Part shown: positions 19,536-56,276 of the stretch, one piece after another
Position numbering within the stretch: position 1 is the first letter of the stretch
Layout of the letters: the number at the start of each line of letters is the position of its first letter
Origin: Escherichia coli
GTDB lineage: Bacteria; Pseudomonadota; Gammaproteobacteria; Enterobacterales; Enterobacteriaceae
Assembly (NCBI RefSeq): GCF_003790525.1
Contig: NZ_CP033636.1
Strand: one strand, 5' to 3'
Length of the DNA: 64,000 nucleotides
Position numbers and translations under genes: made by a program
Notes under the pieces: generated by a model
Told to the model about the DNA's origin: nothing
What the model saw: only the letters and a program-made list of their open reading frames with translations
Database searches by the model: none

Positions 19536-19572
19536 ACAGAAAGGTGCTGCTTTCCGGGCAGCACCTTTCTGT
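19536..19572 (+). other. Perfect 15-bp-stem hairpin between two terY genes (intercistronic RNA structure)
   Basis: ACAGAAAGGTGCTGC-TTTCCGG-GCAGCACCTTTCTGT; no U-run follows, so not a canonical intrinsic terminator. Confidence 0.6.
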
Positions 19573-34823: not shown

Positions 34824-34843
34824 TTCAATACCCTCTTAATAGA

Positions 34844-34879
34844 GGGATTTCTCCCATAGGGAGAAATCCCTATGGGAGA
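34844..34879 (-). repeat. Two overlapping, mutually exclusive perfect hairpins between P2 and P3
   Basis: GGGATTTCTCCC-ATA-GGGAGAAATCCC (34844-34870) overlaps TCTCCCATAGGGA-GAAA-TCCCTATGGGAGA (34850-34879); followed by CCCTCT-ATTA-AGAGGG which pairs with the SD of P3. Confidence 0.7.
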
Positions 34880-34891
34880 AAATAATTTTAA

Positions 34892-35827
34892 TTAATAATT
34901 ATAGCGAAGCGCATGTTCTTTTTCACTAAGATGGTTTTCATATTCCGACTTACCAGAACTTAAACACTCTTTGAAAAAGACCTTTGAAAAATTCTTCAAG
35001 TCACTTCGGTTATTAATTTCTTTGTCAGACATCAACTTAGCTGAGTGTGAGGTATCAACAGGCCCCAACCACCATTCATATTTAATATAAACACAATTGG
35101 TTTGTGTATGTCCATTTAGAAATCGTTTTGCATTTCTAAGTATTTTTCTACAACCGTTAAGGTCTGAAAGTAAGATATCTGGAGCAATGAGCTCTTCCAG
35201 AATATGACCAGGTAAGCCTTTCCTAAAAAGCTCAACATCGTAACTACAATACCAGTCACGATAATTAAAAGCTTTAATAAGTCTTTCAGGTGTATCCAAA
35301 GATATCTTATTCAGGATTTTTAATGCAAAGCATACAGCATCTTTTAACAACTCGTGCACCTCAACATTGATAAATGAGAAAAACGAGCTTAATTCTTTCT
35401 CTAAGGAATTATACAACTTACCGTAAATATCCTGAGAAAAAAGATACTGCAATCTTTCTTTATTATAAGTGCAATTCGAAATTGAATAGACTTCTCCTCT
35501 TTCGATTTTGCACCCTTCCCTTAAAACTATAGGAAACCTCAAATGGTTAACAAAGAAAGAATGATTCTTTCTTTGCTTCAAAGCATCTAATTGAAATTTC
35601 GTAATTTCCTCCAGATTTGCATCTTCAAAACCTGGAAAGGGAATATCACAGAAACAAGAACTATATGCTTTTGCTGATTCATACATAAACTCCAGTGAAA
35701 CATCAGCATCAAAAGACATACCAGAGAACATGCCCTGCCCATTGTCTAAAAATGTAATGTTTTTAACCTGTATTTTTTTATGTTGAACAACCAAAAAGGC
35801 ATTAATGATTTTTTCGATAATTTTCAT
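34892..35827 (-). CDS. paralogue-array protein P2 (about 311 aa, unknown function)
   Basis: ATG at 35827 preceded by GAGAGAGG; the track ORF starts at an upstream TTG (35842). Confidence 0.5.
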   Translation of the reverse strand: MKIIEKIINAFLVVQHKKIQVKNITFLDNGQGMFSGMSFDADVSLEFMYESAKAYSSCFCDIPFPGFEDANLEEITKFQLDALKQRKNHSFFVNHLRFPIVLREGCKIERGEVYSISNCTYNKERLQYLFSQDIYGKLYNSLEKELSSFFSFINVEVHELLKDAVCFALKILNKISLDTPERLIKAFNYRDWYCSYDVELFRKGLPGHILEELIAPDILLSDLNGCRKILRNAKRFLNGHTQTNCVYIKYEWWLGPVDTSHSAKLMSDKEINNRSDLKNFSKVFFKECLSSGKSEYENHLSEKEHALRYNY

Positions 35828-37376: not shown

Positions 37377-37569
37377 TAAAATGCTCTCCGATGTAAAACG
37401 ACGAGCATCACCATAACGGTAATACTCCCGTTATGGGTTTTAATAGTTTATGGAATAACCATGTCATACAACCGACCATAGCCAGTAGTACCGCACATTT
37501 ATTTAACTGAGCAAGCATCTCAGCCGTGAAAAGACCTTAAAGGCAGGTAATTATCACGAAGGAAAGCGG

Positions 37570-37613
37570 TTATCTTATCAATACAATTTTAAAATATAAT
37601 ATTGATAAGATAA
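37570..37613. promoter_or_regulatory. 14-bp perfect inverted repeat TTATCTTATCAATA / TATTGATAAGATAA with 16-bp AT-only spacer (candidate operator or origin-like site)
   Basis: Read directly; immediately followed by the CCCCCGC-AAAAA-GCGGGGG hairpin (37614-37636); lies between the primase stop and the next gene. Confidence 0.5.
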
Positions 37614-37646
37614 CCCCCCCCGCAAAAAGCGGGGGAGTTATCGTTG

Positions 37647-38879: not shown

Positions 38880-38960
38880 GATGATCTCTCTTATCTGGCA
38901 TTGTGAGTTTCTCAATGCCTTCTGCGGTGCAGAAGACAGGGAGAAACCCACAACGCAGAA

Positions 38961-39214: not shown

Positions 39215-39242
39215 ATTTTGCTCCTTATTCCTTCATGGAGCA
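39215..39242 (-). other. Hairpin that pairs with the SD of the 73-aa gene
   Basis: TTTGCTCC (39215-39222) pairs with GGAGCAAA (39235-39242); on the mRNA the AAGGAG SD lies inside the stem. Confidence 0.45.
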
Positions 39243-39285
39243 AAAAGACCCACCGGGGCCTTTTGCCCCGATTGGGTAGAGTTTA

Positions 39286-41298: not shown

Positions 41299-41314
41299 AG
41301 AATACCTCTTTATA

Positions 41315-41362
41315 AAAAAGGGGTACTCACCCAGATGGTGAAGTACCCATCTGGGGTTTTTA
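41315..41362. terminator. Bidirectional terminator-like palindrome between the 379-aa gene and the vWA gene
   Basis: AAAAAA-GGGGTACTCACCCAGATGGTGAAGTACCCATCTGGGG-TTTTT; nested stems CCCAGATGG/CCATCTGGG and GGGTACT/AGTACCC flanked by A6 and T5. Confidence 0.6.
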
Positions 41363-42503: not shown

Positions 42504-42871
42504 GGGTTTCTCCAAAAAAAAGGGGAAACCCTCCCCAACGGGAAAGATTTCCCGATAGGGTTGATATTAAAGCTTCTCTGGTGAAATTAAAAGAATACCG
42601 GGAAACTCAGCAACAACATCATCATTGCCCATTGCTCCCTGATACATATAACCTTTTAATTCCATTTGTTTAATCAGACCTTCCATATTTATTTTACCAT
42701 CATGATAAAACAATAAAGAATAGTCGTTATTCAGTTGCATAAGTCCAGTAAAATTAGTTCCGTTTTTTGCTATAGCAATGGTAGCAGCACCATCCGTACT
42801 TAAAAACGCACTAAATTCAAGATGGGATAACTCTGAGATACAAATATCAGAGGTTTCATAACAAATCCCAT

Positions 42872-44978: not shown

Positions 44979-45005
44979 GGAGAAATCCCATGAAGGGATT
45001 TCTCC
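44979..45005 (-). repeat. Perfect 11-bp-stem hairpin, arm-swapped relative of the hairpin at 34844
   Basis: GGAGAAATCCC-ATGAA-GGGATTTCTCC; same stem sequence as 34844-34870 with the two arms exchanged; followed on the minus strand by UUUU, SD and ATG. Confidence 0.7.
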
Positions 45006-45403: not shown

Positions 45404-45460
45404 TTTCCGCTCCTCGATTTGTTCAAAGAGAAGCCCCGTTAGGGTTCCCCCTTAACAGGA

Positions 45461-56241: not shown

Positions 56242-56276
56242 TAAAAAAGCCGGGACAAAATGTCCCGGCTTTATAT
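56242..56276 (-). terminator. Rho-independent terminator after the 1434-aa gene
   Basis: AGCCGGGAC-AAAAT-GTCCCGGCT with T6 on the minus strand (A6 on plus). Confidence 0.65.

Follow-up and report, generated by a model that had tools for sequence, protein, structure and literature searches.

Mutually exclusive hairpins upstream of a conserved IncHI2 plasmid gene and their possible role as a repeated translational gate

Why does a short intergenic region of an Escherichia coli plasmid harbor two overlapping perfect palindromes, followed at once by a stem that buries the Shine-Dalgarno (SD) sequence of the downstream gene? The region in question is located between the genes P2 and P3 on a stretch of 64,000 nucleotides (contig NZ_CP033636.1, assembly GCF_003790525.1), hereafter termed the window. 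The window represents the backbone of an IncHI2 plasmid, and in the part that comprises the element every gene is encoded on the minus strand. Here, we report that the intergenic RNA contains three helices, designated A, B, and C, which cannot all form at the same time, and that the same layout is repeated along the surrounding gene cluster and conserved in related plasmids. As judged by folding calculations, the element upstream of P3 may serve as a translational gate with two states.

The 68-nt P2-P3 intergenic RNA reads UAA-UUAAAAUUAU-UUUCUCCCAUAGGGA-UUUC-UCCCUAUGGGAGAAA-U-CCCUCU-AUUA-AGAGGG-UAUUGAA-AUG and thus proceeds from the stop codon of P2 via an A/U-only spacer, hairpin A, and hairpin C to the start codon of P3; the coordinates of all parts are compiled in Table 1. 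In the alternative hairpin B, the 5′-arm is made up of the upper 5′-strand of A, its loop, and the adjoining first part of its 3′-strand; the partner strand runs from the end of the A 3′-arm through the linker into the first four anti-SD nucleotides. As A and B overlap over 24 nucleotides (34848-34871), they are mutually exclusive, and the 3′-arm of B and the 5′-arm of C have the sequence CCCU in common. The 3′-arm of C, AGAGGG, is the sole SD-like sequence in this position and is located 7 nt upstream of the P3 start codon. A previous reading of the sequence alone had already described two palindromes that exclude each other and a third stem, CCCTCT/AGAGGG, pairing with the SD of P3. All three are present, the two palindromes being slightly longer than noted (15 bp for A and 13 bp for B).

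The minus-strand RNA comprising positions 34900-34815 folds as A + C, with the SD located in C, at -34.8 kcal/mol, as compared to -17.0 +/- 2.7 kcal/mol for 200 dinucleotide shuffles (z = -6.6), none of which folded as well. When perfect hairpins with stems of 12 bp or more and loops of 3-8 nt are counted, the 64 kb yield four, two of them being the overlapping pair A/B, whereas 0.1 per 64 kb are expected in a first-order Markov random sequence. The palindromic structure is real and far beyond chance. Likewise, the absence of a U-run noted in the sequence-only reading was borne out: hairpin A is followed by UCCCUCUA and hairpin B by UAUUAAGA, with 3 U in 8 nt after B on the mRNA strand, which does not correspond to an intrinsic terminator, where ~5 or more U in 8 nt would be expected directly after the hairpin. 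The sole match of the terminator scan at this junction resides on the plus strand, where no gene reads in. Canonical terminators consisting of a hairpin and a U-run flank the cluster at 46506-46437 and 31730-31714; since these bracket the cluster, the internal hairpins lacking a U-run constitute another type of element.

The region is 100% identical in more than 1,100 IncHI2/IncHI2A conjugative plasmids from E. coli, Salmonella, and Enterobacter. Conservation was addressed with syntenic arrays from IncHI1 (pHCM1), a Citrobacter plasmid typed IncHI1B, a 99.3% IncHI2 variant, and five further lineages taken from assemblies and metagenomes, the P3 proteins of which are 45-86% identical. MAFFT and covariance-model alignments placed the IncHI1 group one column out of register for A and B of the P3 junction. 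This junction was judged by constrained folding of each lineage, and pair counts were run on the P2 junction instead. At the P3 junction, all three helices are kept in all nine lineages despite differing arm sequences, with energies ranging from -17.7 to -25.9 kcal/mol for A, from -14.0 to -21.6 kcal/mol for B, and from -5.7 to -8.1 kcal/mol for C. The arms of B, for instance, pair as GGGAUUUCUCCC/GGGAGAAAUCCC in IncHI2, as GGGAAUUCUUCC/GGGAGGAUUCCC in IncHI1, and as GAGGGGC.UUUCCC/GGGGAA.GCUCCUC in one of the other lineages (L011).

At the P2 junction, 95.5% of the cells of A + C pair, as compared to 47-58% with a slid register. Four pairs show compensatory double changes, and four of five measures were reached by only 0-10 of 500 shuffles. 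Moreover, 86 distinct helices contain 81 G·U pairs but only 4 single A·C mismatches, which argues for selection on the RNA of the mRNA strand and not on the DNA duplex or on an antisense RNA. Upstream of the 173-aa gene and of P1-P5, the nine lineages provided 53 regions for folding, each of which yielded A + C. Modules of this kind are also present at the homologous genes of pNDM-MAR-like Klebsiella plasmids, where the DUF3150 protein is 40% identical, and in three still more distant metagenomic arrays. In the Klebsiella pneumoniae plasmid NZ_CP027156.1 (IncFIB/IncHI1B; lineage L013) the cluster consists of a helicase, AAA, DUF3150, VWA, and Toprim genes and a 179-aa gene. There, the array of five paralogs is entirely missing, and A/B/C modules are retained before several genes, indicating that the modules are older than, and independent of, the paralog expansion.

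The hairpin-bearing cluster belongs to the Tra2 transfer region, with trhI directly upstream. It starts with genes for proteins of 290, 125, and 325 aa, followed by a CobS-like AAA+ ATPase, a 57-aa gene, a DUF3150 protein, a CobT-like VWA protein, a 73-aa gene, a Toprim primase-like gene, a 173-aa gene, and finally P1-P5. The sequence-only reading had treated the arrangement as a feature of the P2-P3 junction; this view has to be widened. A sliding 70-nt fold of the whole window, combined with folds of the 80 nt upstream of each annotated start, placed one copy of the module before at least ten genes, which encode the 125-aa protein, the DUF3150 and VWA proteins, the 73-aa and 173-aa proteins, and P1-P5. 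In each case, hairpin A carries a GC clamp and an SD-sequestering hairpin C begins 0-4 nt behind it, and folding of all intergenic regions of the array revealed that the 3′-arm of C is the SD and that C ends 2-8 nt upstream of the start codon. The modules are ~58 nt in size and have a common architecture, while their sequences differ. The fold survey of the window detected no module upstream of trhI, the first gene (290 aa), the 57-aa gene, the ATPase and Toprim genes, or any gene downstream of P5.

In line with this survey, a covariance model built solely from P3-junction sequences recovered the nine P3 modules with E = 1e-21 to 1e-28 and, at E < 1, yielded full-length sense-strand matches ending at the starts of P5, P4, P2, VWA, DUF3150, the 125-aa gene, the 173-aa gene, and P1. 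The distance between the upstream stop codon and A varies from 1 to more than 100 nt across the modules, whereas the distance between A and C is constant (0-4 nt), which assigns the module to the translation initiation region of the downstream gene. Furthermore, the base of A has a common consensus, (A)CCC(A/U)N2-4GGG, in the leaders of non-homologous genes.

A variant of the module precedes the 325-aa gene. In its leader, we observed a perfect 11-bp hairpin (44979-45005, minus strand) with the arms GGGAGAAAUCCC and GGGAUUUCUCC; these 12-mers also form the arms of stem B at the P3 junction, but there in the opposite order. The SD of this gene, GGAG, can pair with CUCC at the end of the 3′-arm of the same hairpin. 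The leader of the Toprim gene (~38895-38960, minus strand) comprises an interrupted hairpin of ~29 bp, the 83-nt leader folding at -42.7 kcal/mol. This structure is unlike the A/C modules, and pNDM-MAR-like plasmids and three distant lineages (L013, L014, L016, L017) carry it at the equivalent position.

Helices A and C are thus a recurrent feature, and the question arises whether the pairing underlying B is selected as well. For this comparison, X denotes the top of the A 5′-arm together with the A loop, and Y the strand following A that forms the 5′-arm of C, i.e. the anti-SD. X is complementary to Y in almost every module, and the X:Y pairing is stem B. Being complementary to the anti-SD strand, X resembles the SD region and can be regarded as an SD-like decoy, as exemplified by P2 (X, GGGGAUCACA; SD region, GAGGAUCACAUG). 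Pairing of X with Y across the ten module types of the window gave a mean of -10.6 kcal/mol for cognate duplexes, as compared to -6.1 kcal/mol for non-cognate ones, and the cognate partner is the best in 7 of 10. When the X:Y assignment was permuted, the observed mean was reached in 2 of 100,000 trials (p = 2e-5). Across lineages, the cognate partner ranked first in 32 of 52 cases, as compared to an expectation of 1 in 6.

At the P2 junction, helix B pairs in 72 of 72 cells (100%), as compared to 43-59% with a slid register, and one position runs through C-G, U·G, and U-A. In lineage L005, the A loop of this junction has diverged from the SD copy, and pairing is still kept via G·U. When the 8 nt of the outer 3′-arm of B were permuted at the P3 junction, the real energy was reached in at most 0.9% of the trials in eight lineages and in 4.6% in the ninth. 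Taken together, the complementarity behind B is very probably selected.

How could these helices control P3? In the OFF state, which would be the thermodynamic default, A is formed and the adjacent C pairs the SD with the anti-SD strand. In the ON state, the decoy provided by the top and loop of A would pair with the anti-SD strand as B, whereby C would be dissolved and the SD exposed. When the outer 5′-arm of A was masked at P3, the minimum-energy fold flipped to B in the four lineages tested, and the predicted probability of the SD being unpaired, P(SD unpaired), increased from 0.00-0.01 to 0.38-0.80. In the default state, the mean P(SD unpaired) over the SD nucleotides of the modules is 0.00-0.26, the higher values each reflecting a single bulged nucleotide. 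Moreover, the C hairpins of some modules reach -12 to -17 kcal/mol and whole modules -30 to -36 kcal/mol. As the SDs are predicted to be virtually inaccessible, some active opening would be required for expression. We put the chance that a functional two-state translational gate operates upstream of P3 at slightly less than even.

As to the opening of A, our leading guess, albeit an unlikely one, is that translation arriving from upstream unlocks it, so that the cistrons of the operon would be translationally coupled. The 5′-arm of A might be pried open by a terminating ribosome or by a 30S subunit in standby on the A/U-rich spacer, and the opening would be relayed through B to the SD ~50 nt away. 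Several observations are consistent with such a relay. The first gene of the cluster (290 aa) is devoid of a module, the spacer between stop codon and A measures 1-10 nt at six or seven of the ten modules, and the SD of P3 is predicted to be base-paired without upstream translation, as in translationally coupled genes with an occluded SD (MS2 coat-replicase, repY-repZ). In addition, the 173-aa gene follows a 270-nt non-coding region in which a conserved mini-ORF (open reading frame), AUG-N6-CCA-UAA, ends ~10 nt before A in 8 of 9 lineages, the same spacing as between stop codon and A at the P2 and P3 junctions; the CCAUAA motif is found with this spacing also in L014 and L017. The motif itself, AUGG-N5-CCAUAA (~37440-37470, minus strand), is readable as a mini-ORF of 4-5 codons ending in Pro-stop (MVIP*, MVYP*, MDFP*, MEFPY*) and equally well as a small palindrome upstream of the A hairpin of the 173-aa gene.

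Several points weigh against the gate and its opening by ribosomes. At equilibrium, A + C is ~10 kcal/mol more stable than B at P3. As A + C is favored and A emerges from transcription ahead of the 3′-arm of B, spontaneous formation of B is not to be expected and a trigger would be required; a trans-acting factor for the gate was not identified. A ribosome at a stop codon protects only ~9 nt downstream. As A begins 10 nt past the P2 stop, the terminating ribosome would abut A rather than open it. Moreover, the spacer is not conserved: it measures 16-22 nt at the P3 junction of IncHI1, and three modules of the window have long spacers (VWA, 20 nt; P1, 26 nt; P5, more than 100 nt), which leaves the geometry ambiguous. 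In the folding model, masking of the A 5′-arm caused a partial or no response at the other modules, and P2 and P5 were still predicted to favor C over B. Finally, the B-specific nucleotides of P3 are also partly constrained by A and C, and hence the permutation of the outer 3′-arm of B cannot isolate B.

The leading alternative is that the helices are static and the potential to form B is incidental, an explanation that we consider rather doubtful. Hairpin A would then act in stability, processing, or insulation, be it as a 5′-terminal protective stem after RNase E cleavage in the A/U spacer, as a 3′ barrier for the upstream cistron, or as a block to ribosome sliding, while C would keep translation of the cistron low. 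A + C is strongly favored in every module, and no switching trigger was found. An A/U-only spacer preceding a GC-clamped hairpin resembles the known contexts of RNase E cleavage and of 5′ stem-loop stabilizers, and A is positioned at the minimal distance that allows it to stay folded beside a terminating ribosome. However, static helices leave unexplained both the module-specific complementarity between A loop and anti-SD and the near-equal stability of B and A in the nine lineages of the P3 junction. Moreover, a C hairpin of -12 to -17 kcal/mol would render some genes almost untranslatable if no mechanism existed to open it.

Retaining the two-state gate, A could alternatively be opened by a dedicated RNA-binding protein or a small RNA of plasmid or host origin that recognizes the ACCCAU...GGG base, and the cluster would constitute one post-transcriptional regulon. 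We consider this quite unlikely, yet about as plausible as the ribosome relay, because the leaders of non-homologous genes share the consensus at the base of A. Furthermore, the modules are confined to one contiguous cluster, and the variable distance between stop codon and A speaks against a purely ribosome-driven trigger. On the other hand, the CCC/GGG consensus may merely reflect the need for a GC clamp, and a candidate regulator did not emerge, the cluster proteins carrying no RNA-binding annotation.

If the gate exists at P3, it might be iterated: decoy/anti-SD/SD gates of three helices could lock at least ten cistrons of the 13-kb cluster by default and release them cistron by cistron, either upon a common signal or through a ribosome-driven relay. 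We regard this extension as doubtful though conceivable. It would provide a processive translational checkpoint for the CobS/CobT-like AAA+/VWA proteins, the primase-like protein, and the private family of five paralogs. In any case, a conserved 13-kb backbone cluster is fitted before almost every gene with a uniform RNA device that is predicted to be strongly repressive. A real switch would add a layer of post-transcriptional control to IncHI plasmids, and the combination of a clamp-held decoy, anti-SD, and SD would offer a compact natural design to gate or couple translation along long operons.

The remaining explanations fare worse. A transcription attenuator in which B would be the terminator and A the antiterminator is very unlikely. 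Some sister modules do contain a U-run after the 3′-end of B (U7 at P2, U8 at DUF3150, U6 at VWA), but these belong to the loop or stem of C and do not occur throughout. At the P3 junction only 2-3 U in 8 nt follow B in 8 of 9 lineages, so that the U-tract of a trp-type attenuator is missing, as are a leader peptide and any leader ORF over the first segment. Moreover, A is the first to form and the more stable hairpin, and read-through would be constitutive. Thus, the earlier preference for a switch over a terminator stands insofar as there is no U-tract and the exclusive layout of three helices is kept in all nine lineages at P3, whereas its attenuation variant is unsupported.

An RNA thermometer would fit the position of the SD inside a hairpin and the thermosensitive conjugation of IncHI plasmids (PMC6764697). 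Nevertheless, it is highly improbable, since P(SD unpaired) is predicted to be flat between 20 and 50 °C in all ten modules (0.001 throughout for P3, an in silico value), the C stems are GC-rich, and no match to the Rfam families ROSE or fourU was obtained. Least probable of all is a role of the palindromes in the DNA, as protein operator, recombination or cruciform site, single-strand priming signal, or REP-type repeat: they are also perfect at the DNA level and have a Toprim primase-like gene in their vicinity, but the excess of G·U over A·C reveals strand-specific selection on RNA, C always holds the SD and ends shortly before the start codon, the modules differ in sequence, and the 13-mer is unique in the window.

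Several further candidates were considered and rejected. Stop-codon read-through or frameshifting across the hairpins was considered because the frame beyond the stop continues for 20 codons or more at the P3 junction (8 of 9 lineages) and at the P4 junction (7 of 9). These lineages represent only 3-4 independent clades with a chance expectation of ~0.2 per junction, the stop is UAAU, and the junctions of P1, P2 (IncHI1), and P5 are closed. A mini-ORF starting from an AUG in the 3′-arm of A (AUGGGAGAA...UGA) is not conserved, as lineage L004 carries UUG in place of AUG and lacks the stop and the IncHI1 versions also deviate. Pairing of the A loop with the anti-SD as an H-type pseudoknot is sterically implausible with only 0-4 nt linking a stem of 11-15 bp to its target. 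Bypassing as in T4 gene 60 lacks matching take-off and landing codons, and a simple thermometer was discarded because of the flat accessibility of the SD.

Comparison with known systems places the element best as an iterated variant of SD sequestration with an anti-sequestor, a familiar principle, outside any named family. Rfam returned no family at the gathering score, permissive matches being at chance level, and full-text literature searches yielded no description of these hairpins in IncHI plasmids; the modules provide a clean covariation data set for an RNA family missing from Rfam. A riboswitch is not indicated, as no Rfam family matched and a module of ~58 nt leaves no room for an aptamer. 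The closest parallels are the translational attenuation leaders of ermC and cat, repY-repZ of ColIb-P9, and the refolding of hok mRNA. In the ermC and cat leaders, four consecutive complementary segments pair by default as 1:2 and 3:4 with the SD in 3:4, and pairing of 2:3 frees the SD; A, B, and C correspond to 1:2, 2:3, and 3:4, and the helices are mutually exclusive here as well. Unlike in ermC and cat, no leader peptide ORF spans segment 1, since P2 ends 10 nt short of the 5′-arm of A and the intergenic region contains no ORF with an SD. Moreover, inducer logic is not known here, and the module precedes at least ten genes instead of one.

The repY-repZ leaders of ColIb-P9 and other IncI and IncB plasmids share a downstream SD locked in a helix and an upstream hairpin loop complementary to the sequence just 5′ of this SD, and are likewise plasmid-borne. 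In both cases, loop pairing would hold the ribosome-binding site open once upstream translation disturbs the structure. In ColIb-P9, however, loop and target pair over a long range as a pseudoknot that leaves the upstream hairpin intact and is controlled by an antisense RNA, whereas here the target is only 0-4 nt from A and no antisense RNA is known. As the target abuts A, a pseudoknot is sterically implausible and A would have to open. The element thus fails the known triggers, having no leader peptide over segment 1, no known antisense RNA, and no possible pseudoknot geometry.

Mutually exclusive helices that gate translation, with a full-length fold that is inert until remodeled, are also reminiscent of hok refolding (tac/fbi/ucb/dcb) and the standby leader of tisB. 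Those systems, however, respond to 3′ or 5′ processing, are counteracted by an antisense small RNA, and control a single toxin gene each, and neither sequence nor Rfam similarity to them was detected. Fold-back inhibition, as described for the IS10 transposase and T4 e, soc, and 49, similarly employs an upstream complementary strand that hides the ribosome-binding site in long transcripts, transcripts without the 5′-arm being translatable. Here, this would require a start inside the 5′-arm of A, whereas the only promoter-like site would start transcription upstream of A. This site (34926-34898, minus strand; GTGAAA-17 nt-TATAAT, 10 of 12 matches) overlaps the final codons of P2 and, going by its consensus match only, would initiate transcription ~10 nt upstream of hairpin A. 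In the region as a whole, promoter-like matches are fewer than in shuffles (19 vs 29.8).

Intercistronic stabilizer and processing hairpins (REP in malEFG, pap, puf, T7 RNase III sites) are GC-rich, lack a U-tract, and lie between operon cistrons as well, but are not accompanied by an adjacent SD-sequestering helix or by decoy/anti-SD complementarity. T7-type RNase III sites comprise ~20 bp of double-stranded RNA, often with an internal loop; A has 15 bp, and A with C stacked coaxially across a 1-nt gap would have ~22 bp. REP elements are near-identical dispersed repeats, whereas the modules differ in sequence; an assignment to REP, BIME, or ERIC is not supported, as TCTCCCATAGGGA is confined to the two arms at this site even when up to 2 mismatches are tolerated. 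Finally, integron attC sites are not indicated, since the intergenic region contains no RYYYAAC/GTTRRRY core sites and the hairpins track the downstream SD and not the end of the upstream gene.

Table 1. Coordinates of the P2-P3 element, its flanking genes, and the sister modules in the window
Feature	Position	Strand	Basis or remark
P2, 311-aa hypothetical protein	34892-35827	-	annotation
P2 UAA stop codon	34892..34894	-	sequence reading, annotation
A/U-only spacer, 10 nt (UUAAAAUUAU), P2 stop to hairpin A	34882..34891	-	sequence reading
Hairpin A	34848..34881	-	15 perfect pairs, -25.1 kcal/mol
Hairpin A, RNA 5′-arm (UUUCUCCCAUAGGGA)	34881-34867	-	
Hairpin A, loop UUUC	34866-34863	-	
Hairpin A, 3′-arm	34862-34848	-	
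Stem A, arms	34848-34862/34867-34881	-	inverted-repeat search; 15 nt, 100% complementary, 4-nt loop
Alternative hairpin B	34843..34871	-	13 perfect pairs, -21.6 kcal/mol; excludes A and C
Hairpin B, 5′-arm (AGGGAUUUCUCCC)	34871-34859	-	
Hairpin B, loop	34858-34856	-	
Hairpin B, 3′-arm (GGGAGAAAUCCCU)	34855-34843	-	
Stem B, arms	34843-34855/34859-34871	-	inverted-repeat search; 13 nt, 100% complementary, 3-nt loop
Hairpin C	34831..34846	-	-8.1 kcal/mol; predicted P(SD unpaired) ~0.00
Hairpin C, anti-SD CCCUCU	34846-34841	-	
Hairpin C, loop AUUA		-	
Hairpin C, SD arm AGAGGG	34836-34831	-	
P3 AUG start codon	34821..34823	-	sequence reading, annotation
P3, 306 aa	33903-34823	-	annotation
Sister module before P2	35828..35887	-	A CCCAUGUGGGG/CCCCAUAUGGG, B GGGAUCAC/GUGAUCCC, C includes GAGGAUCAC
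Sister module before P4	33837..33897	-	folding
Sister module before P5	32727..32785	-	folding
Sister module before P1	36777..36828	-	folding
Sister module before 173-aa gene	37377..37436	-	folding
Sister module before 73-aa gene	39215..39277	-	folding
Sister module before CobT-like VWA gene	41299..41355	-	folding
Sister module before DUF3150 gene	42504..42560	-	folding
Sister module before 125-aa gene	45404..45459	-	folding; hairpin A begins 1 nt past upstream stop codon

In Salmonella, E. coli, and Enterobacter, multidrug resistance, that to colistin included, has major carriers in the plasmids of the IncHI1 and IncHI2 types. The proteins P1-P5 are annotated as hypothetical proteins in the matching plasmid records. 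They comprise ~300 aa each, with an identity to P1 of only 14-19%, and searches of Pfam, NCBIfam, PADLOC, and PHROG with the five paralogs returned no family match. The family is represented by only 73 clusters among 1.84 billion proteins, and a search of GTDB genome contigs with P3 peptide patterns gave no match, the P3 protein family being restricted to IncHI-like plasmids. The AlphaFold model of P3 is confident (pLDDT, the predicted local distance difference test, of 82), yet it has no convincing structural neighbor and does not reveal a function.

The 270-nt non-coding gap between the Toprim and 173-aa genes (37377-37646, minus strand) contains a G/C hairpin, CUCCCCCGC..GCGGGGGGG (37637-37615), with no good U-tract and, adjoining it, a long A/T-rich near-perfect palindrome (~37567-37615). 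These structures could mark the boundary of a transcription unit or an origin-like site. Apart from the A/B pair, the perfect hairpins of at least 12 bp in the window are located at 56246-56272 and 19536-19572; the latter, in a GC-rich part of the window, comprises 15 bp with U-runs on both strands and looks like a bidirectional terminator.

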